Positions 12,660 through 33,872 of a stretch of 64,000 nucleotides of DNA are shown here, piece after piece. Where the stretch lies: assembly GCA_958296075.1 (NCBI GenBank), contig CATQHW010000005.1:73270-137269 (forward strand). Direction: 5' to 3'. The stretch is from an uncultured Spirochaetia bacterium (GTDB lineage Bacteria > Spirochaetota > Spirochaetia > SZUA-6 > Bin103). The first letter of the stretch is position 1. Every line of letters begins with the position of its first letter. A program made the translations under genes and the position numbers. The notes under the pieces are model-generated. The model was not told where the DNA came from and did not search any database. It worked only from the letters and a program-made list of their open reading frames with translations.

Positions 12660-13613
12660 CTACACCGCCGCGGCGAGGGGCGGGACGTCGACCGATTCGA
12701 GCAGGTCGTCGACCGCTCCATCCTCGGTCATGCCCTTGGCGGAGTGCTCGGACTTGAGCAGCAGCCGCTTGCGCAGCACCGACGGGGCGAGGTCGCGGAC
12801 ATCTTCCGGCGTGACGAAGTCCCGGCCGCGCACCGCGGCGAGCGCCTGACCGCCCTTGAACATCGCCAGCGATCCGCGCGGCGACACGCCGATCATCAGG
12901 CGGTTGTCCTCCCGCGTGCGGTTGACGATCGACAGGATGTAGCGCCGGATCGACGGTTCGACGTGGACCTCCATCACCGCTTCCTGCATCTGCAGCAGCG
13001 TATCGATCTCCGTGACGGGGCGTATGCGGTCCAGGGGCGGCTCGATGACGCGCTGCATGGCGATCACCGACTTCTCCGCCTCCCGCGACGGATAGCCGAT
13101 CTTGATCGACAGGAAGAAGCGGTCCTTCTGCACCTCCGGGAGCGGAAAGGTATCCTCCGACTCGACCGGGCTCTCGGTGGCGATCAGCACGAAGGGATCG
13201 GGCAGCGGCTGACTGCGGCCCTCGACCGAGACCTGTCCTTCGGCCATCGCCTCCAGCAGCGCCGACTGGGTGCGCGGCGTGGCGCGGTTGATCTCGTCGA
13301 CCAGCAGCATGTTGGTCATGATCGGCCCTTCGCGGAAGTCGAACTCCCCGGTTTGAGGATTGAAGACCGACACGCCGAGCACGTCGGCGGGGAGCAGGTC
13401 GGGCGTGCACTGCAGTTGCCGGAACTGCCCGCCGATGCTCTTTGCCACCGCGCGGCCCAGCACGGTCTTGCCGGTGCCGGGCACGTCCTCGATCAGCACG
13501 TGGCCACGGCAGAGCAGCGCTACCAGGACCCGTTCGATCGGATCCTGTTTGCCGAAGAACGCCTGTTCCACCGAGCCGCGCACCTGCTCGGCCCATGCTT
13601 TCACGTCTGCCAT
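12660..13613 (-). CDS. MoxR-family AAA+ ATPase (paralogue 1)
   Basis: Walker A EDVPGTGKT, Walker B LLVDEINRATPRTQSALLEAMAEGQVSVEG, and QKDRFF. 317 aa, the typical MoxR size. Confidence 0.9.
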   Translation of the reverse strand: MADVKAWAEQVRGSVEQAFFGKQDPIERVLVALLCRGHVLIEDVPGTGKTVLGRAVAKSIGGQFRQLQCTPDLLPADVLGVSVFNPQTGEFDFREGPIMTNMLLVDEINRATPRTQSALLEAMAEGQVSVEGRSQPLPDPFVLIATESPVESEDTFPLPEVQKDRFFLSIKIGYPSREAEKSVIAMQRVIEPPLDRIRPVTEIDTLLQMQEAVMEVHVEPSIRRYILSIVNRTREDNRLMIGVSPRGSLAMFKGGQALAAVRGRDFVTPEDVRDLAPSVLRKRLLLKSEHSAKGMTEDGAVDDLLESVDVPPLAAAV

Positions 13614-13665
13614 CGGTTACTCCTCTCGGTTACCGGGAAACGCCGTTCCCGCAGGCGTCGGCGAC

Positions 13666-15273: not shown

Positions 15274-16463
15274 CGCTTGATCAACTCCGATCCGTAGCCG
15301 CGCACCGGGTGCGAACGGATGCCGGGCACCACCGCGTCCTCTTCGCGAGTCTGGTGCGTGGAGACGATGAAGACCTGCACGTCATGGCCGCGGCGGCGCA
15401 GCGCCAGCAGCGAATCGTTCTGGGCGCCGGTGGTGGGCGGCGTCACCACCATCACCTTGGCGCCGGTGGGGATCGGCACGCCCGATGCCAGCACGTGGCC
15501 GGTGAAGTCGATCGGCTCCTTGCCGGCGGTGATGCGCGCCAGCATCTCCAGGATGCCGATGGCGTGACCCACCCCGGCGCGCGCCGGCTCCGCCGGCGGC
15601 TGGTCGCCGCCCCGTATCGAGCCGGTGGTGATGATGCCGACCTCCTGCTTGATGCTGACGAAGAAGAACAACAGGCTGCCGGCCACCTCGATCGCGCGTT
15701 CCATGAGGTGCTCGCGCTGGCCCATCGGGTAATCGCCCTCCGTCAGGTTGAGCACGATCATGACCGGGTAGTAGATCGACGGCGTGTACTCGGTCGAGAA
15801 GAGCTTGCCCATGCGCGCCGACACCTTCCAGTTGATCCGCTTCAACTCGTCGCCGGCCACGTACTCGCGCACGGAGCGGAACCGGGTCGTGTCCTCGTAG
15901 AGGCGGCTGGAGACCGTGATGCTGCCGGACGGCAGCCCGTCCTTCTCATGCATCTCGACCGGAAACACCGCCGGGTATACGAGCACGGTGGCGGGGGTCG
16001 GCGACTGGTGACCCCACTTGAAGAAGCCCATCGGGTCGGCGCCGCGCAGCCGCACCGGCCCCAGCTTGAACTCGCCGCGGTGGTGGCTCTCCGCCTCGTA
16101 GGTGACCTGCCGGCGCCCGCCGGGCGGCAGCGCGACCATGAACGAGCCGCCGCGCACTACGAAACTGCCGTAGGTGTCGGCCACGGTCAGGTAGTGGATC
16201 GGTATCGGCCCGCGGTTGTGCAGCTCCAGGGTCACGCGAAACCGCTGGAAGCGCTGCGCGTGGATCAGCGTCTCGGTGCGGGTCACCTGCACCAGGCGCG
16301 GCGCCAGATATGCATACAACAGCGCCAGCGCGCGGACCACGAGCAGGGCCAGGACCGCGAAGCGGAACGGGCGGAACGGCGCGAACAGAAACGTCCCCAG
16401 CAGGACCAGCGGGAACAGGAGGTCGACGAAGAAACGCAGCCGCCCCCCGGCGTTGATCGCCAC
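15270..16463 (-). CDS. DUF58 (vWA-like) protein
   Basis: REYVAGDELKRINWKVSARMGKLFSTEY is the DUF58 hallmark (Y.pGD..r.IdWkasAr). It has two N-terminal TM helices and starts at GTG 16463, 4 nt after the upstream MoxR stop. Confidence 0.85.
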   Translation of the reverse strand: MAINAGGRLRFFVDLLFPLVLLGTFLFAPFRPFRFAVLALLVVRALALLYAYLAPRLVQVTRTETLIHAQRFQRFRVTLELHNRGPIPIHYLTVADTYGSFVVRGGSFMVALPPGGRRQVTYEAESHHRGEFKLGPVRLRGADPMGFFKWGHQSPTPATVLVYPAVFPVEMHEKDGLPSGSITVSSRLYEDTTRFRSVREYVAGDELKRINWKVSARMGKLFSTEYTPSIYYPVMIVLNLTEGDYPMGQREHLMERAIEVAGSLLFFFVSIKQEVGIITTGSIRGGDQPPAEPARAGVGHAIGILEMLARITAGKEPIDFTGHVLASGVPIPTGAKVMVVTPPTTGAQNDSLLALRRRGHDVQVFIVSTHQTREEDAVVPGIRSHPVRGYGSELIKR

Positions 16464-16467
16464 CGGG

Positions 16468-17430
16468 TCAGCCGCCGGCAGCTACCGGGGCGGCCGCCGG
16501 CTCGCGGGGAGTGGATTCGAGCAGACCGTCGATCACCAGATCCTCGTCCAGACCCTTGAGCTGGTGTTCCGACCGGACGCTGATCCGCTTCAGCAGCACC
16601 CCCGGAGCCAAGTTGATCACGTCGTCGATCGTGGCCCGCGTGCGGCCATTCATCGCCGCCACCGCCTGCGCGCCCTTGTACAGGGCCATCGACGCGCGCG
16701 GCGACGCGCCCAGGTTGAGCCGGTTGTCGCTGCGGGTCGCCTCCACCAGGGTCAGGATGTACTCCTGCACCTCGTCCTCGACCTCGACCTCGAGGATCTT
16801 CTGTTGCAGCGAGAGCACCGTCTGCAGATCGGTGGCCGGCTTCAGGTCGGTGACCGGATGCGTGAGCCGCCGCTGCGCCAGCATGATCTCTTCCTCCGCC
16901 TCCGGCGGCGGATAGCCCATGCGCAGGGTGAGAAAGAACCGGTCCTTCTGGGCTTCCGGCAGGTTGAACGTCCCTTCGAACTCGACCGGGTTCTCCGTGG
17001 CGATCATGAAGAACGGCTGCGGCAGCGGAGTGGTCTTGCCCTCGACGCTGATCTGCCCCTCCGCCATCGCCTCCAGCAGCGCGGACTGCGTGCGGGGCGT
17101 CGCCCGGTTGACCTCATCGACCAGCAGGATGTTGGTCATCACCGGCCCTTCCTTGAAGTCGAAATCGCCCGACTTGGGGTTGTAGACCGAGACGCCCAGC
17201 ACGTCGGCCGGCAGCAGATCGGGCGTGCACTGGATGCGCCGGAACTCGCCGCCGAGCACCAGCGACAGCGCCCGCGCCAGGATCGTCTTGCCCACGCCCG
17301 GCACGTCCTCCAGCAGCGCGTGGCCGCGGCACAGCAGGGCGATCAGCAACCGGCGGATCACCTGTTCCTTGCCGAGGATCACCTTGCCGACTTCATCGAC
17401 GATCGACTTCGACCAACTGCGCACGTCCAT
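16468..17430 (-). CDS. MoxR-family AAA+ ATPase (paralogue 2)
   Basis: EDVPGVGKT, LLVDEVNRATPRTQSALLEAMAEGQISVEG and QKDRFF. Roughly 60% identical by eye to paralogue 1, and colinear over the full length. Confidence 0.9.
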   Translation of the reverse strand: MDVRSWSKSIVDEVGKVILGKEQVIRRLLIALLCRGHALLEDVPGVGKTILARALSLVLGGEFRRIQCTPDLLPADVLGVSVYNPKSGDFDFKEGPVMTNILLVDEVNRATPRTQSALLEAMAEGQISVEGKTTPLPQPFFMIATENPVEFEGTFNLPEAQKDRFFLTLRMGYPPPEAEEEIMLAQRRLTHPVTDLKPATDLQTVLSLQQKILEVEVEDEVQEYILTLVEATRSDNRLNLGASPRASMALYKGAQAVAAMNGRTRATIDDVINLAPGVLLKRISVRSEHQLKGLDEDLVIDGLLESTPREPAAAPVAAGG

Positions 17431-19577: not shown

Positions 19578-21938
19578 TCACGGGGAGAAGGTCGAATCCC
19601 AGACGTTGCCTTCCCCGGGCGTGTACTGGCCTGTCCTGATGCGGGCGATTTCATAGTCAGGCAATGACGTGATCGCAACGCACGTTCCGTCCAGGAACGC
19701 CCCGCGTTCCGCGAACGAAAAATCCAGGTTGTCGAAACCGGACTGAACCTGACGCCAGCGGGCGGGAAGGTCGGCGGCATCCGCTGGCACGACGTGCAGG
19801 AAGAACGGATCATGCACGTCCTCCGCCACGCACGGATCTCTGAGATACGTCAACGCGTTTCCAGCAAGATAGAGGTCGAAGATCGAGCGCGCCGCCGGCG
19901 CCCCGTAATCGCCGGCCAGGATCGACCGGTACGCCGACCGATACGGATGGAGCCGCTGCTCGGCGATCTCCGCCTTCCAGAGCGGGCCGTACGCGGGGAA
20001 ATACTGGCCGGTCGTGATATGGCCGATCCGGTAACCCGGCAGCGTAACGACCGCCAAGCATCTGCCGTCCAGGATGACGCCGCGCTCCGAAAAGGTAAAG
20101 TCCAGGTTGTCGAAACCGGACTGAACCTGACGCCAGCGGGCGGGAAGGTCGGCGGCATCCGCTGGCACGACGTGCAGGAAGAAACCGGCCTTCACGTCCT
20201 CTGCGGTGCACGGCTCCTTGAAGTACGCGAGCGCGTCGCCGTAGAGATAGATATCGAAGTGCGAGCGAACTACCTGATCTCCCGCAAGGGACGCCGAGCC
20301 GGACGGCCCGCCGGCCGCAGTGATCCGGAATATCACGCCGTCGTTCAGGTCCGCGACGAGTTCCACGCCCGGCAAGGCGCCCAATTCATCGAATACGTAG
20401 TCGTAATTACGAGCGCGAAACGAGTTCTCGAACAAGACGACATACGCCGATTCAGCAGGATCGCGGTTGGCAAGCTGATCCGTGACGTCGGCGAGAGAGA
20501 GGCTGATCGTCCAGACGCGGCGCAGCTCGGTAAGGAAATAGAGCGCCTGAGGATCGCTCGACCAGACGGTGCCGTCCAGCCGATTGGCGTTCAGATACCG
20601 GATGACGTCGGACTCGGTCCAACCCCTGGACGTGTAGCCGCTGCCGTCATCCAGCCACACCCTGGTAGCGTTGTAGGTCGCTCCGACCTGCTGCACCAGC
20701 CACAGCGAAACGACGATCGAGGCGACGACCGGAACCGCTTTTCCGATCTTCTTCGATGCCGCCGCGTTGCGGGCATGAGCGTTCGACATGAGTCCGTCCA
20801 GAACCATCGTCGCCGCTACCAGCAGCGGCGGAAACAACGGCAACAGATATCTGACCGCCAGCATCGTGTCGGCGAGCGGCAGATATATCGCCAGAAAGAG
20901 CGAGTACGCGGCGACGAAGACTATGGAAACGGTCAGTACGGTGCGGTTCTTGCGGAGGAATCCGGGCCGGTACCGCGCGAGTGCGTACCCGGCGCCGATC
21001 GCCGGCGCAGCCAGGACCGCCAGCTTCGCCGCGGTCGCGGTTACCGTGGCGGCTCCGGCCGGGCCGATGCTGGTAATGCTGCCGATCGCGCCGTTCAGCA
21101 CGTCGAATCCCGTTGGCCCCAATAACCACAAGGCGAATTCGTCGGTCGCGCGATGGAGGCTGATCAGACCGGAAAATCCATCTGGAAACTGTGATCCGAG
21201 AACCGATCCGATGACCAGCAGATTGCGCATTATCCATACGCCGACCGGCGCCATGGAAGCGACCGACCAGATCGCGGTGTCTCGGAGCCTGGTGCGAATT
21301 ACGATGTCGTTCCGCAGGAGGAGCACCAGCGCCCCGGCGCCGATCATGACCCCGCCCAGGTAGCGGGTCAGACATGCGGCGGCGGCCGCGGCCGCCGCCA
21401 GCAGGAGCGCGAGCACCTTCCCGCTGCTCAGGAACCGGTCCAGCAGCGAGAGCGCGATCACGATGAACAGGATGCAGACGACTTCCGTCCACGCATGAGC
21501 TGCCGCGGAGGCCAGTGCAGGCGACAGGGCGCACGCGCAGCCGGCCCACACGGCGAGCAGCGGCGACCGGACATGGCGTTTCAGCCACGCGGCGACCACG
21601 AAGACGGTCAACCCGAACGCGGCGGCGTTGACGTAGCCGGCCGCGTCGATGACATCGATGCCGAACAGACCGACGGCGGCCAGCAGCAGCGGGAAGAGTG
21701 GAGCGGCGCCCTGGTACCGGGTTCCGTTCCATTCGAGGAGCCCGTCTCCGGCCAACAGATTTCGAGCGACCGATATGTATGAACCGGAGTCCCAGGTCAG
21801 CCCAACCCCATGATTGGCCTCCCGCAGCAGGATGAGCGCTGCGCCGAGCACGCCGAGTGCGGGCACCGCGAACCGGGCCATGTCGTTCGACAACGCGGCG
21901 CGGCGCGGCGTTCGACGCGACCGCACGTTGGCGTTCAT
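19578..21938 (-). CDS. GT-C fold polyprenyl-phosphate-sugar-dependent glycosyltransferase (ArnT/PMT, GT39/GT83-like) with two C-terminal Cys-repeat modules
   Basis: N-terminal polytopic region with the first-loop motif GLTWDSGSYISVARNLLAGDG and more than 10 TM helices. The C-terminal about 240 aa are two tandem copies of a module with consensus F.YL.G..L.Y.K.PC...D....FFLHV.P....DLP......GF.NLDF.F...G....G.C.A...LP.Y.I..I.TGQY. Confidence 0.7.
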   Translation of the reverse strand: MNANVRSRRTPRRAALSNDMARFAVPALGVLGAALILLREANHGVGLTWDSGSYISVARNLLAGDGLLEWNGTRYQGAAPLFPLLLAAVGLFGIDVIDAAGYVNAAAFGLTVFVVAAWLKRHVRSPLLAVWAGCACALSPALASAAAHAWTEVVCILFIVIALSLLDRFLSSGKVLALLLAAAAAAAACLTRYLGGVMIGAGALVLLLRNDIVIRTRLRDTAIWSVASMAPVGVWIMRNLLVIGSVLGSQFPDGFSGLISLHRATDEFALWLLGPTGFDVLNGAIGSITSIGPAGAATVTATAAKLAVLAAPAIGAGYALARYRPGFLRKNRTVLTVSIVFVAAYSLFLAIYLPLADTMLAVRYLLPLFPPLLVAATMVLDGLMSNAHARNAAASKKIGKAVPVVASIVVSLWLVQQVGATYNATRVWLDDGSGYTSRGWTESDVIRYLNANRLDGTVWSSDPQALYFLTELRRVWTISLSLADVTDQLANRDPAESAYVVLFENSFRARNYDYVFDELGALPGVELVADLNDGVIFRITAAGGPSGSASLAGDQVVRSHFDIYLYGDALAYFKEPCTAEDVKAGFFLHVVPADAADLPARWRQVQSGFDNLDFTFSERGVILDGRCLAVVTLPGYRIGHITTGQYFPAYGPLWKAEIAEQRLHPYRSAYRSILAGDYGAPAARSIFDLYLAGNALTYLRDPCVAEDVHDPFFLHVVPADAADLPARWRQVQSGFDNLDFSFAERGAFLDGTCVAITSLPDYEIARIRTGQYTPGEGNVWDSTFSP
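19723..19805. repeat. 83-bp perfect direct repeat, copy A (inside the GT-C gene)
   Basis: tccaggttgtcgaaaccggactgaacctgacgccagcgggcgggaaggtcggcggcatccgctggcacgacgtgcaggaagaa is identical to 20101-20183. The flanks have diverged. Confidence 0.95.
20101..20183. repeat. 83-bp perfect direct repeat, copy B
   Basis: Identical to 19723-19805. The offset is exactly 378 bp (126 codons), so the two copies are in the same reading frame. Confidence 0.95.
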
Positions 21939-21950
21939 GGCGGCGATCGG

Positions 21951-22652
21951 CTATGAGCGCTTGCGGAAGACGGCAAGGAAACTCGAGCCGATGAGAGCCA
22001 CCAGCGGCCCGCCGACACCCCGCAGTCGCATCCCCCACGGCGGAAAGATCGAGAGCCATTCTACCGGTTCGAGTCCGGCGCGGTCCGCCGCCGCGTGCAT
22101 CCGGGACGGTGGATGGTGGATCAGGTCGGATGCGGAATGCCGCCGGCGGTCGAGGATGCGCAAACCTGCGTCGGCGGCGCGGTGGACCCATGCCTTGCGA
22201 TTGGCCCAGGCGATTATCAGCCGCCCTCCGGCGCGCAGCACCCGCGCCGTTTCGCGCAGCACGCGCTCGACATCAGCGGCGCTGCACTGCTGGACCATCT
22301 CGACATTCACCACGACGTCCACGGTAGCGTCCGCCAACGGCAGATCGGTCGCGTTGCCGCGCAGCGCATGCAGTCCGTTCCGTCCGGCCTGCTCGCACGC
22401 CGCGCGATCCAGGTCCACGCCGGTGACGCGGCGCCCGGCCCGGACCAACGGCAGCGTCATCAAGCCGGAGCCGCAGCCGACGTCCAGGATCGTCCCGGAG
22501 CCGCCGCCGACGGCGGCCAACACGAACTCTCGTTCGCGCAGAAACCAGCGTTCGGAGATATAGCCGCATGCCCTGGGGCTGTTTTCGCCAAAACGCTGCC
22601 GCAGCGCCTCGTAAATCTTCTGGTCTCTGGGGTCAGCCTCGGTCTTGTCCAT
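21951..22652 (-). CDS. class I SAM-dependent methyltransferase
   Basis: Motif I ILDVGCGSGLMTLPL, then RVTGVDLD and DVVVNVEMVQ. Confidence 0.8.
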   Translation of the reverse strand: MDKTEADPRDQKIYEALRQRFGENSPRACGYISERWFLREREFVLAAVGGGSGTILDVGCGSGLMTLPLVRAGRRVTGVDLDRAACEQAGRNGLHALRGNATDLPLADATVDVVVNVEMVQQCSAADVERVLRETARVLRAGGRLIIAWANRKAWVHRAADAGLRILDRRRHSASDLIHHPPSRMHAAADRAGLEPVEWLSIFPPWGMRLRGVGGPLVALIGSSFLAVFRKRS

Positions 22653-22688
22653 GACTATGACTATGCTCCGTCAGACTAAAGGCGCGTT

Positions 22689-23648
22689 TTAGAAATCCGC
22701 CAGATACCGGCACAACCGCGGGCCTGCGCGGTCGGTTAAGAAGTCCGGCAAGGTCCGCCAGAGTTTCTGCGCTACCCGGTAGCGGCGGTACGGATCGACC
22801 GGCTTGTCGCTCAGCCACAGGACCGGCACCGGACCGGCGCCGAAGTTGCGCTTGAAACGGTAGGTTCCACTGCCTGCCGGCGACCGTCCGAAATCGAGGA
22901 TATCCGCGCCGTCGTTCGCGGCTTGCTCAACCATGGCCCAAAACAGGAGGTTGCCGGGGCAGTCAGCGCTGTGATACGCTCCCGACCACGGCACCCAGGC
23001 GATCGGGCCGTCGCGCAGCCACAGCAAGCCGGCCTGCGGAGCTCCGTCCACGCGGTTGCGAACCACCAATGTCCGCGCTCCCATCTCCGTTATCAACCCC
23101 TCGAACAACGCCGCCGGCAGCATCGGCGCGCCATGCCGCGCGTGGGCCAGGCGAAGCATGGCGCAAAACGCCTGCAGGGCGCCCGGACCGGTCTCTTCCG
23201 CGGCGGCGAGCCCGGCCTTGCGAGCGCGCCGAACCGCCTTTCGCGCCACGCGGTTGAGTCCCCGTTCCCATACCGCTTCGCGAGCGTGGCCAAAGGCGGC
23301 TAGATCGATCCTGAGAACGGCGGGCGAGCCCGGCCGTAGTTCCCCTTCCGGGCGCGGCGCCGCCAAGGCCCGAATGTTGAACGGACGGCCCTGCACCTCG
23401 CGCGCGAGCTCCTGCGCAGCGGCGGCGTCCAGGTCGGAATAGTTCAGACCCGGCAGATACGCGAATACCGGCCGGCCGGCGAGTGAGGGAACCACGGCGA
23501 ACCGGCCGGCCTGCCGCCAGCGATAGACGCCGCATGATACCGACCGCCACGCGGCGACGAAGTCGGCGCTGTGCCGCAGGGTCAGGCGCCGGTCGTCGTG
23601 CGCTCCACGATACGCAGAACCACCGGCAAGGTCGGGGTACGTCTTCAT
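22689..23648 (-). CDS. FemAB-like / Acetyltransf_6 GNAT-fold transferase
   Basis: About 320 aa with C-terminal GADILDFGRSPAGSGTYRFKRNFGAGP (family pattern ...Y.FK..FG). Earlier it has KAVRRARKAGL, typical of FemAB/BioF2-like GNAT proteins. Confidence 0.6.
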   Translation of the reverse strand: MKTYPDLAGGSAYRGAHDDRRLTLRHSADFVAAWRSVSCGVYRWRQAGRFAVVPSLAGRPVFAYLPGLNYSDLDAAAAQELAREVQGRPFNIRALAAPRPEGELRPGSPAVLRIDLAAFGHAREAVWERGLNRVARKAVRRARKAGLAAAEETGPGALQAFCAMLRLAHARHGAPMLPAALFEGLITEMGARTLVVRNRVDGAPQAGLLWLRDGPIAWVPWSGAYHSADCPGNLLFWAMVEQAANDGADILDFGRSPAGSGTYRFKRNFGAGPVPVLWLSDKPVDPYRRYRVAQKLWRTLPDFLTDRAGPRLCRYLADF

Positions 23649-23706: not shown

Positions 23707-23880
23707 GATCATAGCCGCCGTGCCCGCCGGCGTCCACAATGGCGTGCCCGTCACGGCGAGAACGCCGCGACGGAGCTGCCGCTCGGCGAATATCACCCTC
23801 CAAAGTTCCTCCTCCGGCAGGTACTGGCCGGTGCTGATGCGGCCGATCCGGTAGTCGGCGGCCAGCGCAATCCAGGTCAT
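23707..23880 (-). pseudogene. 3' remnant of a third GT-C/Cys-repeat gene
   Basis: The last 58 codons of ORF 23704..24837, WIALAADYRIGRISTGQYLPEEELWRVIFAERQL, align with CLAVVTLPGYRIGHITTGQYFPAYGPLWKAEIAEQRL of the 786-aa protein. The DNA is also similar (tactggccggt..tgat..ggccgatccggta). Everything upstream is replaced by the PDDEXK_9 pseudogene. Confidence 0.6.
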
Positions 23881-23930: not shown

Positions 23931-25675
23931 TCAGACATCGGCGGTCTTCTCGACCACGGCGTCGCAGTGGACCAGCTCCCAGCCGTGGAACACCAGCGCC
24001 AGCCCGGTGAAGCGGACCGACCGGTACTGCCGCGCCAGCCGCTCGTCGGCCGCATAGCGCCGCACCTGCGCCGTCGCCTCCGCCACCTGCGCCGCGTTCG
24101 CTTGCTCCTGCTTCAGATACTTCAGCTCGATCACGTAGCCGTGGCGTATGCTGGTATAGCGCTGCAGGTGCGGCTCCAGGCAGATGTCGGCGTAGCCGCC
24201 GCCCAGCTCCCGCTCCGAGTGGAATACGAAGTGCTCGGTGGCGCTCAGATAGGCTGCCAGGAAGCCCTGGATCACCTTCTCCCTGGAGGTAGTCGCGGAT
24301 CGCCGTCTGCCGGGCGATCGCTGCGCTCACAGGAACTCCACCACCGGCCGCCATGCGCCCCGGTAGGCCATCTCGTGCACCAAGCGGCCGAACGCATACA
24401 GGTCGACCGAGAACACCCCCACGTCGCGGTAGCCGTCGCGCAGGAAGGCGTACATCAGCCGCCGGACGGTCTGGTTGGGTATCCCCAGCCGCGGCCTGCC
24501 GTCGCGCACCTCGCGGATGCTGAGCAGACCGAAGAAGTGCAGCAGCGACAGGAAGTGCTCGCGCTGATTCAGTTGCTCCAGTGGGAAGCCGCCGGTGCTT
24601 TCGCTGTCGGCCCAACCCTCGCCGATGACGCGGCGCAACAGGTCGAAGTTGCCGTTCAACTGCCGGTTGACCGTGAGCAGGTGGCGCAGCTTGCCGTAGT
24701 CGATACGCACGTTGGTATCGATCAGATCGTCCGGCGGTTCCTCGTTCGGAATCGACTCCTTGAGGTAATAGAGCACCATGTCGGTGTTGTAGAGATCGTT
24801 CGGCGCGGCCTTGGCGAAGCGGTAGCCGTTGTACCACTCGCCCATCACCGCCATCGCCTCGTCCACGTTCTGGTCGAATACGCCGTGGTCCCGGTAGGTC
24901 GAAAGGATGCCGCGCACCTCCGCCTCGGTGAAGCCGAGCAGCTCGTTGAACTTCCGGCGCAGGCTGAGGTTGGCGGCGATGTTGAAGCCGCTGGTCACGT
25001 CGTCCATGGTGATCGGCGACACGCCGGTGACGAACAGGCGCTCGATGGCGCCGGCGCCGGCGCCGGCCTTGAGGGTGGCGAAGAAGTTGCGGTAGAAGCC
25101 GCCGCCGTGGGTGAAGGAGTGGTACGCCTCCGCCCGCGATGGGCCAGGATGGTGTTGGCGAAGTTGTCGTACTCGTCGATCAGCACGTACAGCGGGATGC
25201 CCTGCTCGCCGGCGTAGTCAAACAGCTCGTTCAGCCGGCCGTCGATGGCAGGGAGCGCCAGGATGCGGTCGATCACCGGCTGAGGAAACAGGTCCCGATT
25301 CCGTTCCAGCGCAGAGCGGAGTTTGATGAAGCAGTAGGTCTCGAAGCGCTCGCGCAGCGTCTCCAGGGTGTCGTCGAAGGCGGAGAAGTCGAAGCGCAGG
25401 ACGACGTACCGGTTGCGGTTCGGCGTCGGCCGGCGCCCGACGTCGGTGCCGGCGAACAGGGTCTCGAAGCTGTCAGCGCGGGTGCGATCGTAGTAGTGAT
25501 CGAGCAACGACACCCAGCACGACTTGCCGAAGCGGCGGGGGCGGATCAGAAAGGCGTAGCGCTCCTGCTCCAGGTCATGCAGGAAGCGGGTCTTGTCGAC
25601 GTACAGGGTGCGCTCGCGACGCATCGCTGCGAAGTCCGCCCAGCCGTAGGGGATCTGCGGATATGCGCTGCTCAT
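23931..25675 (-). pseudogene. AAA-ATPase_like + PDDEXK_9 (DUF1703) family gene inactivated by about 3 frameshifts
   Basis: Three consecutive ORF pieces are colinear with the intact paralogue at 40288..42090. They are the lower part of 24995..26482 from ATG 25675 (MSSAYPQIPYGWADF...DEYDNFANTILAH), then 24327..25022, then 23931..24275. There is a 1-nt deletion near 25133, and two further frame changes at 24276-24330. Confidence 0.8.
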
Positions 25676-25861
25676 CGATTCCGTGCGCTGGTGCCGGCGA
25701 CCAGGATCAGCCCGCCCGCGATCAGCATAGGGTCGGCCGACCCGTTTCGTCGAGACGCGGCCGCCGGCACCGCAAAAGACCCGCGGGCTCGCCAGGCAGG
25801 TGGCGCACGTGTACGATGAATCGTTCTGGCAGCTCCTTCCGTTCGTTCCAGGAGACCTCCG

Positions 25862-26872
25862 ATGCAGTGGGCTAGGCCGTGGACCTGGGCGCTCGCCGCG
25901 ACCGTCAGTCTGGCGCTGTTCGGAGTGGTCGCCACGCGGCTCGACGCGGCTTCCCTGGCCGCCGCGGCGGCTTCGTTTTCGTGGCCTCTCGTCGCGGCGG
26001 GGTCGGCGCTCCTGGTGGCGGCGCACCTGTTCGGCGCCCTGCGGACTCATCTGATCGCCGAGCGCGGCCCGTTTACCACCGCCATACGGGTCACTGCCTG
26101 GCATGCAGTCTGGCTGATCGCGCTGCCGATGCGCCTGGGAGAAGTGGCCTGGGTCGTGGCCATGCGCAAGGCCTACGGGTGGAACCCGGCCACGGCAGTC
26201 GTCTGCGCCCTGGTACAGCGGCTGCTGGACTTGGCGGTCATCGCCGCCTTCCTGCTGCTGGCGACGCCGGCGGTTCTCGGCCTGGGCCGGGATGGGGCGC
26301 CGCTGATCGCCGCCGCGGCCGCCACCGCCTGCGGGCTGGCGCTCGCCGGCGCCGTGACGCTGCGGGTCTGGCTGCGCCTGATCGCCCGGCTGGTGATCGC
26401 GACCGGCCGTCCGCGCGGTTGGCGATTGCGTGTTTTGCATCACCTGCGCCAAGGTCGGCGGTGGCTGGAAAGCGTCCATCATCGGCGCATCATGCGACTA
26501 TGCCTGATGCCTACGGCGCTGTCGTGGCTGGCGGTCTTCGGCGGCCATTGGCTTCTCTGCCAGGCGATCGGCCTGCAGGTGGCCGTGGCCGAACTCCTGT
26601 TCGCGGCCGCCGGCAGCAATCTGATAACGGCGCTCCCGGTGCAGTCCATCGGCGGGTTCGGGCTGATGGAGGTGGGGTTCACCGGCATCCTCGCCTGGTT
26701 CGGCTCCCCTGCCGATACCGCCGCTGTCGCCGCCCTGACAATTCGTTTCGCCACCTGGGTCGGGACCGGCCTGTTCTGGCTGATCGGCCTGCTGTCGGTA
26801 CGGGTGCGGCGCGGCGTTCAATGCCGCTCTCCGGCGATCGCCGGCGGTTTACTCCGGCAAGACGAGGAATGA
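25862..26872 (+). CDS. LPG_synthase_TM / UPF0104 flippase-like membrane protein (MprF N-terminal-domain family)
   Basis: 336 aa with about 8 TM helices. Motifs RLGEVAWVVAMRK and ALPVQSIGGFGLMEVGFTGILAWFG are typical of this family. Confidence 0.65.
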   Translation: MQWARPWTWALAATVSLALFGVVATRLDAASLAAAAASFSWPLVAAGSALLVAAHLFGALRTHLIAERGPFTTAIRVTAWHAVWLIALPMRLGEVAWVVAMRKAYGWNPATAVVCALVQRLLDLAVIAAFLLLATPAVLGLGRDGAPLIAAAAATACGLALAGAVTLRVWLRLIARLVIATGRPRGWRLRVLHHLRQGRRWLESVHHRRIMRLCLMPTALSWLAVFGGHWLLCQAIGLQVAVAELLFAAAGSNLITALPVQSIGGFGLMEVGFTGILAWFGSPADTAAVAALTIRFATWVGTGLFWLIGLLSVRVRRGVQCRSPAIAGGLLRQDEE

Positions 26873-27777: not shown

Positions 27778-30700
27778 TCACCTCCGCACGTTGTCTTCCG
27801 CGCGGCGCGGCGGGTACGACGGCTGCAGGAGGTACGGCTCCTCGTTCGGAAGCAGCGAGAGCGTGGCGGTCTCCGTAAACGCGGGGATGCGGCCGACGAC
27901 CTTGCCGTTCTGCGTGACCTCCACCGGTGCGTCGAACCAATCGGTCGGCCGCCTGAATATCAACGTCAACGGCTGATCGAACCGGTCATTGTCCAGACCG
28001 TCCGCCAGCACGAACTCGATCCGGCGCGTCACTCCGTCCCGTTCGATCACCTGCATGGTAACCTCGGCGTTCTCCCGTTCCCGCAGGTAGAGAACCACGT
28101 CGTTCATCGGGGCGACCCAGAAGTCGCGGGCGGCGATGGCTCGAAGGTCCGCCTGAAAGTCTTCCCAGTCGTAGAATCCCCAGCCCTCTCGGCTGCCGAT
28201 ATTGTGGTACACGGGAATGATCCAGGCCGTACTGTGGAGCGCGTGGTCCAGGATGGGGACCAGCTCTCGGGTGTCGTTGATGCACCAGTCGCACTGCCGG
28301 AAGTCGATGCTCTCCATGGTCAGGGCGGGCAGGAAGAACCAGTTATCGGGGGTCGTTTCGGAATCGGGAACGATGTACGGGGTCTGATCCGCCATCCAGA
28401 ACGACAGGCGGCCGGCCAGAAAACCCGCGTCGGCCAGCGCCTGCTGGGTCTCCGCTTCGCCGCCGGCCCCGCGCGGATAGGCGTAGGCTACCGGCTCCAA
28501 CCCCAGGCGCTCCATCACCTCGAAGGAGAGTCGGAACGAATCGTAGGCCTGAGCGTAGGTGAGGGCGTCGTGGTCGACGTGCCAGTGCCCGTGCCCGAAG
28601 AAGCCGAACCCGTGGGCGGTGAGCGACAGAGCGTACTCGATCTGATCGTCGGTCAGGCGGTCGTACAGGTCGCCGGGAACGACGTCCGGGATGAGCTCCG
28701 TCAAGTCGTGCTCGACCCAATCGGGCACCCGGTCTTGGTACATCTGGGTGACCATCTCGTAGTCCAGCACCAGCCCCAGGTCCAGTGCCAGGTCGTCGAC
28801 GGCGTTGGGCGCCCGCGGCGAGCCGTCGTACGTGACGGAGATGGCCGCGTCGTGGTCGTCGAACCACTTCGCTATGGTGATCTCCGGAGAATGGGGAGGC
28901 GGCTTGCTGACCGTGAACGCCGCCTCCCAGAGCTGCTCCCCGCCGCCGCCGGCGGCATACTGGCCGGTGCGGATGCTGGCGATTTCATAGGCGGGAAGCG
29001 GGACCTCCGCCCGGCATCTCCCGTCTGACGCCAAGCCGCGGTTGCGGAATTCGAAGTCCAGGCTATCGAACCCATGCTCCCGGCGATGCGCGGGCAGGTC
29101 GGCGGCGGCGGCCGGTCGGAGGTGCAGGAAGAACTCCGCCTGCGCGTCCCGCGCGGCGCACGGTTCCTTGCGGTAGACCAGCGTGTTCCCGAGCAGGTAG
29201 ACGGCGAAGTCCGGTCGCACCGCCGGTACGACCAGCGTCACGTTCCAGAGCTGCCCGGCGCGCGGCGTAAACTGGCCGGTTGCCAAGCGGGCGACCGGGA
29301 AGTCGGGAAGATCGCGCACCGCTACGCAGAGCCCGCGGTAGCGAAACCCGTGGCGGTCGAAGTCGAAGTCCAGGTTGTGGAACGAGTACCCGGAGACGGG
29401 GAGGTCGTGGTAGTTGCCCGGCACGACGTGCAGGAAGAACCTTGCCTCGACGTCAGCGTCTCGACACCCGTTCTTCGTGAAGATCAGCCGGTCGGCGGCG
29501 GCGTCCAGGTACACCGTGAATTCGGAGCGAAGGCCGATGCTGGCATCTTTCAGAAGCGGCTGCGTGATGCCGCCCGCGTCCAGTGGCGCAGTCGGCGCGC
29601 TGCGGCGCAGGATGACGCCATCATCCAGGGCGGCCACGACCGCCATTCCCGGCATCCGCAGCAATGTCTCCAGACCGTAGCCATAGCGCCCGGAGTCCCG
29701 ATAGAACCAGGCGACGTAGCGCTCCCGGCCGGCGGCCTCCTCCGCGGAGAGCCGAGCCCACGCTCGCGAAAGCTCCTGCGGAAGCTGGTAAGCGCCGGTA
29801 TCCGCCGCCGTCAGAAGGTAGATCGCGGCGCCGTCGGTGCCGTGGATGGCGCCCTGGGGGCGGCCGGCATTCAGGTAACGAACCACGTCGGACTCCGACC
29901 ACTGCCGCGACGCGTAGCCGCCGCCGGTCGCACGCCGCTGTTCGACGTGATCGGCAGTCGCTCCGGCCTGCGGCGCGAGCCACAGCGCGACCAGCAGTGC
30001 GGCGGCGAGTGGCCGCCGCGCCAGCCATCGTCCCGCCGGTCGAACCCGGGAGATCAGCTCATCCAGGACCAGGGTTGCCGTTACCAGCAACGGCGGGAAC
30101 ATCGGCGTCAGGTGCCTGAGCTCGAGCGCGGCGCCGCCTGCGGGAAGGGCGATCAGCAGATAGAGCGCGTACGCCGAAACGAACACGAGAGGGACGGACA
30201 CGTAGGAAATGGCCGTCGCCGTGTGATTTCCCCGCAGGAATCGGCAGCGGCGCCGCGCGAGCGCGTACCCGACGCCGGCCACCGGTACCAGCAGGACGGC
30301 GATCCGCAACGCGACCGCGGGCACGCCGGCACCCGGCATTCCCGCGGCCAACCGGTCCAACAGCCCGAGTCCGGTTCGTCCAATGAGCCACAGGATGAAC
30401 TCACCGGTGGCGGTGTGGAGACTCCGCAGCGGCAGGAATCCGCCGGGACTGGCCGTTCCAAAGGACGCTCCGCTCACGACCAGATTTCCCACCAGCCATG
30501 CGCCGATGGGTGCCGCCGATACGCCGATCCAGACCGCCGCGGCCGCCAGCCTGCTGCGCGCTACGGTGGTTCTCCGTACCAGCAGGAGCAACGCGCCACT
30601 GCCGATCAGAGTCACGCCGGCATAGTGTGTCAGGCCGGCGGCCGCGGCCGCCGCCGCCGCCAGGACGAGGAGCGGCCTCCTGCCCGTGCGCAGAAAGCGG

Positions 30701-32685
30701 TCCAGCGTGGACAGCGACACGACGGCGAACAGGATGAAGGGGATTTCGGGCCACACGTGCGCCGCCACGCCGGCCAGCGAGGTCGACAGGGCGCAGGCGC
30801 AGCCCGCCCAGACGGCCACCAACCGAAACCGAACGCGGCTTCTCACCCACGCGGCGACGGCGTACGCCGTCAGACCGAAGGCGGCGGCATTGAGGTATCC
30901 CGCCGCCGTGACCAGGTCCGCACCGAACAGGCCGGCAGCCGCCAGGGTCACCGGGAAGAGCGGGCCCGCTTCCCGAAACGGGGTGCCGAGGAACGTGACC
31001 AGCCCAGCGCCGTCCAGCAGATTGCGCGCGGCCGACACGTAGAGCGCCGAGTCGGACGTCAGCCCTGGCCCGTAGGCGGTTTCCCACAGCAGAATCAGCA
31101 GCGCACCGACCCCGCCGAGCGCCGCCAGGAACATCGGCAACCCGTCGAGCCGGGCTGCGTGGCGAACGATGCTGCTGCCCGCCAGGGCGCGCCGTGCGGC
31201 GCTCGCGGCGCGTTTGGTGGTGTCCATCTCCATGACCGCCGCGAGCGCGTAGCACAGCGCCAGCGCGTACGGCAGGAACAGGTAGCGGGCGCGGCGATAC
31301 ATCAGATCGTCGGGTATCAGGAGGTGCACGGCGGCGAGCGCCATGAGCGCCGCGATCCACCACGTGCGGCGCAGCAGCGCCGGCCGGTTCCGGCGAGCCT
31401 GCAGGGTAGCGAAGCAGGCGGCCGCGGCGCAGGAGAGGGCCGCGACCCACGTCAGGATTCTGCCGGCCCGCACGCTCCCCAGCCCCATCTGCCAGTACGG
31501 CTCGAAATGCACGACCAGCGGGGCTCCCGCCGGCGCGCGATACCGGTCCGCATACTCGGGAATCGGCAGCCGGCGAGTCAGTTGCTCGAGACCGGGGACG
31601 TCCGTGACGAACTCCCGAACCGTCTGGATCAGGACACCGAGCACTTTGCTGCTCAAGACCCTCCACGTCAGCGCGTCCTGCGGCGCCCCTTCGCATGCTG
31701 CGCGCCACGCGAACCAGTCGGGAACGAGACACGCCTCGAGCGCCATCTTGGCCGCCTGACCCAGGGCGTAGGCAGCGGCGAAACCGGCGATATAGAGCCC
31801 AACGCACCCGCCGGCCAGCCGTGCCCGGCCGGCGGGTGCGGGTTGGTGGTCGTATCCGAAATAGACCAGCATGCCGATGAGCGTGACCATCACGATGCCG
31901 TGTCCGTCGCCCAACCACAGGTATGACGAAACCATGCCGGCGGCGAAGCAGACCAGCCGCGTCAGCCGCAGGCGGGTCTCCGGCGGTGTCGGAGACGGCA
32001 GCCGCGCGCGCATGGCGACGACCAGCGCGACGGACGTCCATACCGCCCAGGCGTACGGTATGCCGATGGCGACGCCTGACAACCAGCGGATGCCGGAGAA
32101 CAGGCAGCCGAAGACGATCAGCGGCGCAAGGATGGCCAGCGTCCGGGGCGCGAGCAGCAGCAGCGCCGCCGCCAGCGCGATCCAACCGGCGTACGCGGCA
32201 TACCGTATCAGGATGCGGATGTCCTGCACGGAAAGGCTGCGCAGCATGACGGCATAGAGCGCCTTGCTGCCCCACCAGTATTGCGTTGAGGAGAAATATT
32301 CGTCTACGTAGAGCCCGTTTACCGCGTCCGCCAACTCGCCGCAGTAATCGTAGTAATCGCCTCGCGGCGCCAACACCTTCGGCAGCAGAGCGTCGCGGAA
32401 TCCGTTGCCGCCCTCGGCGAGCGGCTGGTGCGCTCCGGCCAGGACCATCGCCGACAGCTTGCAGTCCTCGAATGGTGTATTGAATCCTGCCGCGAAGCCC
32501 TCGTCCGGCCGATCGGTCGCGATCTCGGCGGCGAACTTCTGCACCGCGGCGCGAAAGTAGATCTGGTTGCCGAGGTGGTGCAGGAAGATGAACAGCGCCG
32601 TGCCGAGTAGCGCCGTCGCCGTATAGACGGCGACCGGCGCGAGGGGCGAGCGCCGCCGCGGCGCCCGCCCCTCGTCCGCGCCCAT
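27778..32685 (-). CDS. 1635-aa multidomain membrane protein: unknown polytopic module + GT-C glycosyltransferase + 2 Cys-repeat modules + CE4 deacetylase domain
   Basis: I chose the ATG at 32685-32683 because it shares one base with the GT2 stop (TGATG).
- About 32685-31200: unknown TM module.
- About 31150-29540: colinear with the 786-aa GT-C protein, roughly 50% identity by eye (GLTSDSALYVSAARNLLDGAG; VAVWAGCACALS).
- About 29535-28905: two repeat modules (FFLHVVPGNYHDLP, FFLHLRPAAAADLP).
- 28880-27778: CE4 motifs ISVTYDG, HGHWHVDH, AYPRGAG. Confidence 0.75.
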   Translation of the reverse strand: MGADEGRAPRRRSPLAPVAVYTATALLGTALFIFLHHLGNQIYFRAAVQKFAAEIATDRPDEGFAAGFNTPFEDCKLSAMVLAGAHQPLAEGGNGFRDALLPKVLAPRGDYYDYCGELADAVNGLYVDEYFSSTQYWWGSKALYAVMLRSLSVQDIRILIRYAAYAGWIALAAALLLLAPRTLAILAPLIVFGCLFSGIRWLSGVAIGIPYAWAVWTSVALVVAMRARLPSPTPPETRLRLTRLVCFAAGMVSSYLWLGDGHGIVMVTLIGMLVYFGYDHQPAPAGRARLAGGCVGLYIAGFAAAYALGQAAKMALEACLVPDWFAWRAACEGAPQDALTWRVLSSKVLGVLIQTVREFVTDVPGLEQLTRRLPIPEYADRYRAPAGAPLVVHFEPYWQMGLGSVRAGRILTWVAALSCAAAACFATLQARRNRPALLRRTWWIAALMALAAVHLLIPDDLMYRRARYLFLPYALALCYALAAVMEMDTTKRAASAARRALAGSSIVRHAARLDGLPMFLAALGGVGALLILLWETAYGPGLTSDSALYVSAARNLLDGAGLVTFLGTPFREAGPLFPVTLAAAGLFGADLVTAAGYLNAAAFGLTAYAVAAWVRSRVRFRLVAVWAGCACALSTSLAGVAAHVWPEIPFILFAVVSLSTLDRFLRTGRRPLLVLAAAAAAAAGLTHYAGVTLIGSGALLLLVRRTTVARSRLAAAAVWIGVSAAPIGAWLVGNLVVSGASFGTASPGGFLPLRSLHTATGEFILWLIGRTGLGLLDRLAAGMPGAGVPAVALRIAVLLVPVAGVGYALARRRCRFLRGNHTATAISYVSVPLVFVSAYALYLLIALPAGGAALELRHLTPMFPPLLVTATLVLDELISRVRPAGRWLARRPLAAALLVALWLAPQAGATADHVEQRRATGGGYASRQWSESDVVRYLNAGRPQGAIHGTDGAAIYLLTAADTGAYQLPQELSRAWARLSAEEAAGRERYVAWFYRDSGRYGYGLETLLRMPGMAVVAALDDGVILRRSAPTAPLDAGGITQPLLKDASIGLRSEFTVYLDAAADRLIFTKNGCRDADVEARFFLHVVPGNYHDLPVSGYSFHNLDFDFDRHGFRYRGLCVAVRDLPDFPVARLATGQFTPRAGQLWNVTLVVPAVRPDFAVYLLGNTLVYRKEPCAARDAQAEFFLHLRPAAAADLPAHRREHGFDSLDFEFRNRGLASDGRCRAEVPLPAYEIASIRTGQYAAGGGGEQLWEAAFTVSKPPPHSPEITIAKWFDDHDAAISVTYDGSPRAPNAVDDLALDLGLVLDYEMVTQMYQDRVPDWVEHDLTELIPDVVPGDLYDRLTDDQIEYALSLTAHGFGFFGHGHWHVDHDALTYAQAYDSFRLSFEVMERLGLEPVAYAYPRGAGGEAETQQALADAGFLAGRLSFWMADQTPYIVPDSETTPDNWFFLPALTMESIDFRQCDWCINDTRELVPILDHALHSTAWIIPVYHNIGSREGWGFYDWEDFQADLRAIAARDFWVAPMNDVVLYLRERENAEVTMQVIERDGVTRRIEFVLADGLDNDRFDQPLTLIFRRPTDWFDAPVEVTQNGKVVGRIPAFTETATLSLLPNEEPYLLQPSYPPRRAEDNVRR

Positions 32686-33872
32686 CACCGCTCGCGCGTC
32701 GACCCGCGCATGGTCCCCTGCGTCGCCAGCAGCGCGTAGAAAAAGGCGGAGAATATCAGCTCCACGCCACAGATCAGGAGCGTAACGGACGGAACCGCCG
32801 CGCGCATCCGCACCTCGATGTTCGGGCTGCCCATCTGTGCCCATACGAACAGGCTCCAGATGCTTCCCGCCGCTCCCACCAGCACCAGAATGATCCCCGT
32901 CACCACGCCGACGTCCAGGAGCAGGCCGCTCTTCGGGTTCAGCCGCGCCGACCAGCGTCCGTCAGACAGACCGATGTTCTCGCAGAACGCGCTCGCCAGT
33001 AGTGCGAAGATGATCAGTTGCAACCCGCACACCACGAACGCCGCGCCGAACAGCATGGTGTACGATCCGTAGCTGCCGCCCGCTTCCACGGGGTACAGAA
33101 TCGGTATGAGTATCGCCAGCGCTCCGGCCGCGAACAGCATACATCCCGGATAGAGATACAGCCAGCGGGGCGACAGCATCAACAGGAGCCGAAGATGACG
33201 CCAGCCGTCCCGCCACACTCGCAGGTGCGAAGCGCGCTCCGGATCGAGCGCGTGGCGCTGTACCACCGGCACTTCGGCTATGCGCATGTCGGCCTTCACG
33301 GCCTTGACGATCATCTCGCTGGCCGCCTCCATGCCCGGGCACCGCAGCGCAAGGGAGCGCGCGCTGCAAGTCTTGAATCCCCGCAGACCGCAGTTGAAGT
33401 CCCTGACCGGCGAGCGGAACAGCACCTTGCCGACGCCGGACAGGACCGCGGTGCCGGCGTTGCGCAATCGGCTCGATGCGGCGACGCCGGCCGCGAACCG
33501 GTTCCCGAACACGAAGTCGTAGCCTTCGCGCAGCTTTTCGTAGTACGGCTCCAGCGATCCCAGGTCGTGCTCGCCGTCGCCGTCTCCCAGGATGATGAAG
33601 CGGCCGCGGGCGGCGTCGATGCCGGCGTTGATCGCGTTGCCGTATCCCGGACGCGACTCGACGACGACCCGCGCGCCGGCGCCTTGGGCCAGATCGGCCG
33701 AGCGGTCGCGGCTGTCGTTGTCGACCACGACGACCTCTCCGTCGATGCCGTTCCGGTCCAGGAAGCCGCGGGCTTCGCCGACGCAGTGAGCGATCGAGCC
33801 CTCCTCGTTGCGGCACAGGATCACGATCGTGAGGTCGTGCCGCGCTCGCGACGGACCGGCGGGTTCGGGCAT
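32685..33872 (-). CDS. GT2 glycosyltransferase with C-terminal TM helices (polyprenyl-phosphate sugar synthase type: ArnC/GtrB/CsbB/DPM1-like)
   Basis: LTIVILCRNEEGSI, VVVDNDSRDRS, GYGNAINAGI and IILGDGDGEHD (the DxD). About 4 C-terminal TM helices are present. Confidence 0.8.
   Translation of the reverse strand: MPEPAGPSRARHDLTIVILCRNEEGSIAHCVGEARGFLDRNGIDGEVVVVDNDSRDRSADLAQGAGARVVVESRPGYGNAINAGIDAARGRFIILGDGDGEHDLGSLEPYYEKLREGYDFVFGNRFAAGVAASSRLRNAGTAVLSGVGKVLFRSPVRDFNCGLRGFKTCSARSLALRCPGMEAASEMIVKAVKADMRIAEVPVVQRHALDPERASHLRVWRDGWRHLRLLLMLSPRWLYLYPGCMLFAAGALAILIPILYPVEAGGSYGSYTMLFGAAFVVCGLQLIIFALLASAFCENIGLSDGRWSARLNPKSGLLLDVGVVTGIILVLVGAAGSIWSLFVWAQMGSPNIEVRMRAAVPSVTLLICGVELIFSAFFYALLATQGTMRGSTRER

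Follow-up and report, generated by a model that had tools for sequence, protein, structure and literature searches.

Several membrane enzymes of the GT-C fold carry soluble accessory domains outside the cytoplasm. In the Emb arabinosyltransferases, which have a lectin-like C-terminal domain, and in AftD, which carries carbohydrate-binding modules (CBMs), a soluble beta-rich accessory domain follows the GT-C membrane domain on the extracytoplasmic side, and the C-terminal domain of Emb binds the acceptor polymer. The eukaryotic PMTs carry a luminal beta-trefoil MIR domain that is inserted in a loop and is implicated in substrate handling (PMC7759382). ArnT (GT83) has a near-invariant Asp in its first outer loop, a small periplasmic domain without tandem modules and a GT2 partner, ArnC. 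In three-component systems (GtrA/GtrB/Gtr*; GT136 pentofuranose), a GT2 synthase, a flippase candidate and a GT-C transferase are encoded together (PMC11127046). Here we analyze a two-cysteine module carried by two GT-C proteins, the products of open reading frames (ORFs) A and B, in a 64,000-nucleotide stretch of DNA from an uncultured Spirochaetia bacterium (contig CATQHW010000005.1, positions 73,270 to 137,269; hereafter the window). The module is a real, strongly conserved domain of a large family, and it is undescribed within the libraries searched (Pfam-A, NCBIfam, PDB sequences, and PDB and BFVD folds). Our favored, still tentative, reading is that it serves extracytoplasmic glycan-modifying enzymes as an exported, disulfide-stabilized accessory domain and binds the glycan that is their acceptor or product.

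The module resembles each of the described systems in part. Like the Emb and AftD domains it is a beta-rich domain placed after a GT-C membrane domain; unlike them it is about 100 aa long, contains a Cys pair and occurs in 1 to 10 tandem copies. There is no sequence or fold likeness to Emb, whose PDB chains matched the membrane domain of ORF A only and a single module not at all. For a binding module on a GT-C enzyme, EmbC with its lectin-like C-terminal domain offers a direct precedent, and it is by analogy with Emb that we propose binding by the module. As with MIR, the module would be an extracytoplasmic accessory domain of PMT-type GT-C enzymes, a likeness seen in the weak PMT_2/PMT matches of its carriers; unlike MIR it is C-terminal, and Pfam and Foldseek do not relate the two. 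With ArnT, ORF A has in common the near-invariant Asp (D50) and a nearby ArnC-like GT2 partner; the likeness does not imply a lipid A substrate for ORF A.

Four full modules and a relic in the window

We built a profile hidden Markov model (HMM) from the four window copies and scanned all six frames of the 64-kb window. The features under study are on the minus strand, in a region of about 69% G+C (window average 0.686).

19578..21938, minus strand: ORF A, 786 aa (from the ORF list and its translation); a GT-C membrane domain (residues ~1-435) is followed by a small soluble alpha/beta domain (~436-545) and, C-terminally, by two modules
19965..20270, minus strand: module A1, first two-cysteine module of ORF A (HMM positions 1-100, E 6.6e-52)
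19893..19964, minus strand: linker between the two modules of ORF A; in the full-length model it is partly helical, with helices at residues 660-663 and 665-674
19587..19892, minus strand: module A2, second module of ORF A (HMM positions 1-100, E 9.1e-52); the stop codon lies 3 residues beyond the module end
27778..32685, minus strand (listed as 27778-32844, 1688 aa): ORF B; in order, an extra polytopic N-terminal domain, a GT-C paralogue, two modules and a deacetylase-like domain
29233..29532, minus strand: module B1 of ORF B (HMM positions 1-100, E 1.4e-46)
28915..29220, minus strand: module B2 of ORF B (HMM positions 1-100, E 1.3e-48)
23769..23874, minus strand: relic of a third module-bearing gene (HMM match 23794-23874, positions 71-98, E 0.0027; DNA alignment)

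The scan returned full modules at exactly four places, each on the minus strand (domain E 1e-46 to 1e-52), along with one partial match and nothing else in the 64 kb. This bears out the four full copies of the original prediction. Modules B1 and B2 correspond to about residues 1105-1310 of the 1688-aa listed ORF. From one module start to the next there are 126 aa in ORF A and 104 in ORF B, in agreement with the length of 105-126 aa given earlier, and 31 invariant columns, both Cys among them, are common to the four copies. The remnant that had been placed at 23707-23880 is real, as seen from the HMM match and from DNA alignment, but it spans only about 35 codons, short of a whole module. The DNA alignment pairs the relic with the final ~28 residues of the first module (3' end of A1) and carries on into the start of the linker; we therefore regard the relic as what is left of a third gene with tandem modules.

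Directly 5' of the relic and on the same strand (23931-25750, minus) lies a gene for an AAA-ATPase_like (PF09820) and PDDEXK_9 (PF08011) protein that is broken over three reading frames. This split gene is either a frameshifted pseudogene or the product of sequencing errors, and it may be a trace of the event by which the third module-bearing gene was destroyed.

A large and strongly conserved domain family

The four-copy profile retrieved 2222 cluster representatives (clusters at 50% identity) at E<=1e-3, 1786 of them at E<=1e-10, and the family thus extends well beyond this genome. In 510 full-length instances from public data both Cys are 100% invariant and the consensus pattern derived from the four window copies holds. 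P76 (99%), W96 (99%), G86 (98%), F56 (97%) and Q87 (95%) are nearly as well conserved. At least eight polar residues (D6, D25, H33, D41, N53, D55, T85 and Q87) are conserved at 72-95%, several Asp, Asn, His and Thr positions among them at 72-89%. The aromatic content is 13%. An AlphaFold2 model of module A2 on its own reached a predicted local distance difference test score (pLDDT) of 95.3 and a predicted TM-score (pTM) of 0.86, with about eight strands and three short helices, as expected of a discrete domain.

Two paralogous genes and a relic within 13 kb, together with a tract of sequence shared by the two modules of ORF A, could also arise from a recent local duplication confined to this genome and without a wider family. 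The shared tract is 83 nt long and 100% identical (19723-19805 and 20101-20183) in modules that are elsewhere 63% identical at the DNA level; it looks like recent intragenic gene conversion, which would be ongoing between the modules of ORF A. A scan with the 4-row alignment across bacterial and archaeal genomes, one genome per species, found 489 stretches that encode a relative of the module, and the closest genomic relatives fall in at least 7 phyla. The cluster representatives and the genomic stretches together reject a purely local duplication, and we assign it next to no probability.

The module in sequence and structure libraries

The module had been described as one that could not be assigned to any named domain family. 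The four window modules match no family in Pfam-A (2025 copy) or NCBIfam r20 at E<=1, and a set of 87 diverse modules gave only scattered chance matches in the two libraries (E>=0.007). PDB sequences searched with the 4-row and 87-row profiles returned nothing credible. Foldseek with the single-module model found, in the PDB, a best match at E 0.067 with TM-scores of at most 0.44 and, in BFVD, a best match at E 0.009 with TM-scores of at most 0.49, none of the BFVD matches reaching E<=1e-3. In public records no family member is named other than as 'hypothetical protein', and full-text literature searches for the motif strings IRTGQY and FFLHV returned nothing relevant.

The weak Foldseek matches in both structure sets are all to immunoglobulin (Ig)-like or other beta-sandwich proteins, raising the question of whether the module belongs, as a remote relative, to a superfamily that has been described; an Ig-like or known CBM beta-sandwich would be one case and a recent entry of InterPro, CATH or ECOD another. 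The top PDB matches are antibody Ig V domains (E 0.07-0.3, TM-score 0.3-0.44, root mean square deviation 5-8 Å), CBM31 (2cov) appears only at E 0.28 and TM-score 0.31, and the superposition on Ig-like or fibronectin-III-type domains is not significant in Foldseek against the PDB. The searches covered Pfam-A, NCBIfam, PDB and BFVD rather than AlphaFold DB, HHpred, ECOD and current InterPro, which leaves some room for such a kinship. Against it stand the poor fold matches in both structure sets despite a model of pLDDT 95, the failure of both profiles to find anything credible in Pfam, NCBIfam and PDB sequences, and the want of any named member in public records; we regard it as quite improbable. 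Judged from the model, the module is possibly a new fold.

A type IX secretion system (T9SS) C-terminal domain or similar C-terminal sorting or secretion domain was also considered and rejected; the modules are tandem, sit on inner-membrane enzymes and occur in phyla without a T9SS.

The carrier proteins ORF A and ORF B

Over its whole length ORF A aligns with residues 561-1311 of ORF B (44% identity, BLASTP), and the '2 + 2' pattern of modules therefore reflects paralogy of whole genes. Pfam places PMT_2 on ORF A at 21.2 bits, below the cut-off of 26.1, and gives no PMT_2/PMT match on ORF B; several homologues carry precomputed PF13231 or PF02366 matches. A full-length AlphaFold2 model of ORF A, built on 88 homologues, has a pLDDT of 91.3. 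All 34 of its PDB matches at E<=1e-3 in Foldseek are GT-C enzymes, with ArnT at the top (5ezm, E 4e-9, target TM-score 0.57), followed by STT3, AglB, DPY19, Pmt4, ALG9/12, PglB, Emb and AftB. The model thus indicates that ORF A has a genuine GT-C fold, and the match to ArnT supports the earlier placement of the module after the soluble domain of a GT-C enzyme. D50, in the motif TWDSG, is at least 90% conserved among the 88 homologues; in the model it falls after helix 12-39 and before the membrane helices that follow. With the loop placement read from this helix layout, D50 would sit in the first loop, which follows the first membrane helix, as expected of a GT-C catalytic loop.

ORF B is longer, and its parts are as follows.

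31165-32685, minus strand: extra polytopic N-terminal domain, ~500 aa with ~9-10 hydrophobic segments, fused ahead of the GT-C paralogue
29545..31164, minus strand: GT-C paralogue part, with approximate boundaries from the BLASTP alignment to ORF A residues 12-555
27778..28899, minus strand: C-terminal 373-aa domain (Polysacc_deac_1 match, E 0.072, below cut-off)

The true start of ORF B is probably the ATG at 32685, overlapping the stop codon of the upstream GT2 gene, because a homologue of 62% identity (P0108) aligns only from residue 64. The N-terminal polytopic domain matches no Pfam or NCBIfam family; it is kept in P0108 and is also found in loci L035 and L061. The C-terminal 373-aa domain is probably a NodB/CE4-like polysaccharide deacetylase, judging from weak family matches. 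P0108, of 2220 aa, contains the unit of two modules and a deacetylase-like domain twice, and it clears the Polysacc_deac_1 cut-off (27.5 vs 23.1 bits) on the second, distal copy (residues 1947-2013), which is not the copy that aligns with 27778-28899 of ORF B. Deacetylase-like domains with weak Polysacc_deac_1 matches lie beside modules in 7 other loci (L005, L012, L018, L019, L030, L053 and L059). The two modules of ORF B are internal, followed by the 373 aa at 27778-28899, and the expectation that modules end every carrier fails here.

Architectures across the family

To describe the proteins that carry the module we use the 150 best-scoring proteins, a set biased towards many copies, and the module-bearing ORFs of 79 related genomic loci. 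Tandem copies per protein range from 1 to 10. In nearly all of the best-scoring proteins (145/150) the last module lies within 20 residues of the C-terminus. An N-terminal part of 400 aa or more, in most cases with 6-11 hydrophobic segments, is present in 99, and 27 have almost no N-terminal part. Some of these 27 are fragments, and others begin with a signal peptide, a membrane anchor or a lipobox. The N-terminal family of ORF A is common to only 35 of the 150 representatives. Partners recognized by Pfam are PMT_2/PMT, GtrII, GT87, DUF2079, Wzy_C (in a protein of the O-antigen-ligase type), Polysacc_deac_1, arylsulfotransferase and GDSL; most partners have no Pfam match. The original prediction had tied the module to GT-C proteins throughout. 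The Wzy_C, arylsulfotransferase and GDSL fusions and the module-only proteins show that the partner is not always GT-C, and a wording that fits better is that the module occurs on membrane-bound or exported envelope-modifying enzymes, mostly GT-C-like. At least two module-bearing ORFs lie within about 12 kb in 49 of the 79 related loci, and the clustered paralogues of the window are therefore typical.

These architectures bear on whether the modules are a passive spacer or stalk, that is, rigid disulfide-stabilized beads that bind no ligand and set the distance from the membrane enzyme to a distal layer or catalytic domain. The range of copy number, the position of modules between catalytic domains in ORF B and P0108, the beta-rich fold and the short linkers would all suit such a role. 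A single module at the very C-terminus, found in 115 of the 173 module-bearing ORFs of the related loci, has nothing beyond it to space, and the many polar residues highly conserved across phyla are unusual for a pure spacer, the level of conservation appearing to exceed what a plain spacer usually keeps. We consider a spacer role unlikely.

Neighboring genes and pathway context

Two genes near ORF B are candidates for the supply of a donor to the GT-C enzymes.

32685..33872, minus strand: GT2 glycosyltransferase, directly upstream of ORF B and overlapping its start (Glycos_transf_2, E 1.3e-19)
25862..26872, plus strand: flippase-like membrane protein of the LPG_synthase_TM family (PF03706, 101 bits vs a cut-off of 33.4)

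The best NCBIfam likenesses of the GT2 protein are AglJ, dolichyl-phosphate hexose transferase, PpgS and ArnC, all below the curated cut-offs, and the protein carries four C-terminal hydrophobic segments. It is likely a polyprenyl-phosphate sugar synthase that makes a lipid-linked donor, and its adjacency suggests a putative polyprenyl-phosphate-linked donor for ORF A and ORF B. The LPG_synthase_TM protein scores 30.5 bits against TIGR00374 ('flippase-like domain'), below cut-off, and is a candidate for the transmembrane carrier of the lipid-linked donor. Of the three components, the window thus holds a GT-C fold, an LPG_synthase_TM protein above its Pfam cut-off and a GT2 protein whose resemblance to AglJ, PpgS and ArnC is sub-threshold. 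It differs from the described three-component systems in that the flippase candidate is of the LPG_synthase_TM type rather than GtrA or MATE, and in that the GT-C proteins carry modules and, in ORF B, a deacetylase-like domain.

In another genome, locus L002 has an arrangement of GT2, LPG_synthase_TM, membrane gene and module. Single-sequence phmmer searches of the 79 related loci with the GT2, flippase-like, methyltransferase and FemAB-like neighbors found few of them. We rate the GT2, flippase and GT-C neighborhood as suggestive of a conserved pathway, and only that, because most related loci did not yield it in these single-sequence searches.

Between ORF A and the relic (21951-23648, minus strand) are genes for a class-I methyltransferase and a FemAB-family protein, the latter resembling the XrtA/PEP-CTERM-associated type (TIGR03019, 98.9 bits, below cut-off); both may be modifiers of the same envelope polymer. 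Beside the GT2 gene (33879-34883, minus strand) is a gene for a protein with Amidase_3 (N-acetylmuramoyl-L-alanine amidase) and SH3_3 domains, which suggests that the organism has peptidoglycan, a point relevant to the acceptor polymer. Just downstream of the glycosylation genes (12660-17430, minus strand) is a cluster of two MoxR-type AAA_3 ATPases with DUF58 and DUF4129, which appears unrelated to the module.

A proposed role in acceptor recognition

The C-terminal soluble domain of ArnT-type enzymes is periplasmic, and invariant Cys pairs are typical of exported proteins. From the data at hand we infer the disulfide, the outer-face location and the ligand binding of the module. An outer-face location is suggested because the module comes after the soluble domain at the C-terminal end of an ArnT-like GT-C enzyme, because module-only proteins carry export signals and because the invariant Cys pair is kept. 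A binding role is suggested because the module is appended to several unrelated catalytic scaffolds, because its tandem copy number varies, because modules can lie between two catalytic domains, as in ORF B, and because many conserved polar and aromatic residues are kept. The module also answers to the description of a CBM as a discretely folded non-catalytic module within a carbohydrate-active enzyme, as judged from the stand-alone model and from the GT-C, Wzy_C and deacetylase-like fusions.

In the mechanism that we propose, the module would fold autonomously into a mostly beta extracytoplasmic domain of ~100 residues that a single disulfide stabilizes. The GT2 enzyme would load a sugar onto polyprenyl phosphate, the flippase-like protein would carry the loaded lipid across the membrane, and the ArnT-like GT-C enzymes ORF A and ORF B would pass the sugar to an extracytoplasmic acceptor, with the fused deacetylase-like domain of ORF B acting on the same polymer. 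The one to ten tandem modules would bind the polymer that serves as acceptor or arises as product, most likely a glycan, and so hold the catalytic domains on their substrate, a role comparable to substrate targeting by the CBMs of other carbohydrate-active enzymes.

Several observations weigh against this proposal. The modules are acidic (median pI 4.8, net charge -5) and give no sugar-specific pointer. Searches of Pfam, NCBIfam, PDB sequences and Foldseek structures revealed no kinship of the module to a known carbohydrate-binding family or fold. The phmmer searches of the 79 related loci found the GT2 protein in 2 and the flippase-like protein in 0. Finally, sponge SAR202 bacteria, which are affiliated with Dehalococcoidia, a source of many module family members, have been reported without peptidoglycan genes (PMC6306507), and the acceptor there could be a protein rather than a glycan.

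This last point leads to the view that the module recognizes protein, either by binding a protein acceptor (e.g. a surface-layer (S-layer) or envelope protein) or by oligomerizing or docking the enzyme to envelope machinery. Among the nearest relatives of the carrier in sequence and fold are the protein-glycosylating PMT, STT3, AglB and PglB, and the upstream GT2 best resembles AglJ of S-layer N-glycosylation. The Wzy_C, deacetylase-like, GtrII and GT87 fusions point instead to glycan substrates, and the module has no likeness to known peptide-binding modules in Pfam, NCBIfam or Foldseek. We think protein recognition improbable, and glycan binding by an exported accessory domain is the reading that we retain.

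Distribution and signs of horizontal exchange and rapid turnover

The best 80 of the 489 genomic stretches are all in metagenome-assembled genomes. They are labeled Dehalococcoidia, Chloroflexota, Caldilineaceae, Latescibacteria, Bryobacterales, Gamma- and Alphaproteobacteria, Pseudomonadales, Candidatus Entotheonella, Binatia and Spirochaetia, in a list whose ranking by similarity to the window may bias which genomes come out best. One 3.5-Mb Dehalococcoidia chromosome (OZ251484.1) contains at least 13 module-bearing loci. The mix of taxa resembles the published signature of high-microbial-abundance sponges (PMC13087572, PMC8163846), and GT83, the ArnT family, is among the most abundant glycosyltransferases of sponge Chloroflexi (PMC6306507). 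The taxon mix is our basis for suggesting that the related genomes come from sponge symbionts.

For about half of the modules from related loci (106/214), the nearest relative in another genome belongs to a different phylum, with identities of up to 86% between Gammaproteobacteria and Binatia and 81% between Entotheonella and Dehalococcoidia. This pattern points to horizontal exchange. The accessions of the cross-phylum genomes are complete-chromosome assemblies, which argues against binning error without excluding it. ORF A has a G+C content of 0.645 (0.80 at third positions), lower than that of the window, and its neighbors have third-position values of 0.82-0.93, compatible with a more recent acquisition of ORF A. 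The nearest DNA matches of the neighboring genes are in Dehalococcoidia genomes (69-73% identity).

Decayed paralogues of the module family are common. At 7460-8477 of locus L001, a deletion product (P0002) joins the N-terminus of a GT-C gene to the last 1.5 modules, and many short public proteins (P0001-P0069) with 1-1.5 modules start mid-module.

A more far-reaching proposal is that the module founds a new fold-level glycan-recognition family that unrelated members of one host-associated community, apparently the microbiome of high-microbial-abundance sponges, have exchanged horizontally. On GT-C enzymes the family would have expanded to twelve or more loci in a genome, and these genes would form a shared toolkit of fast turnover that remodels the symbiont surface, e.g. 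for escape from host phagocytosis or phages. We put this forward as a speculative and, taken as a whole, unlikely extension of the data.

Implications

GT-C enzymes build and decorate bacterial envelopes, and their recognition of acceptors is poorly understood. A module that occurs on thousands of proteins and matches nothing in the libraries searched offers a handle on this problem. We propose that it represents a family of accessory domains of extracytoplasmic glycan-modifying enzymes, one for which the searched libraries contain neither a curated model nor a name, and a family model would annotate domains that at present match nothing in them. If the module binds glycan, it would constitute a new carbohydrate-binding family and possibly a new fold. 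The apparent concentration of the family in metagenome-assembled genomes of many phyla that fit a sponge-symbiont consortium, the cross-phylum identities of up to 86%, the multi-copy clusters, the relics and the gene-conversion tracts suggest a surface-glycosylation system that is horizontally shared and rapidly evolving.

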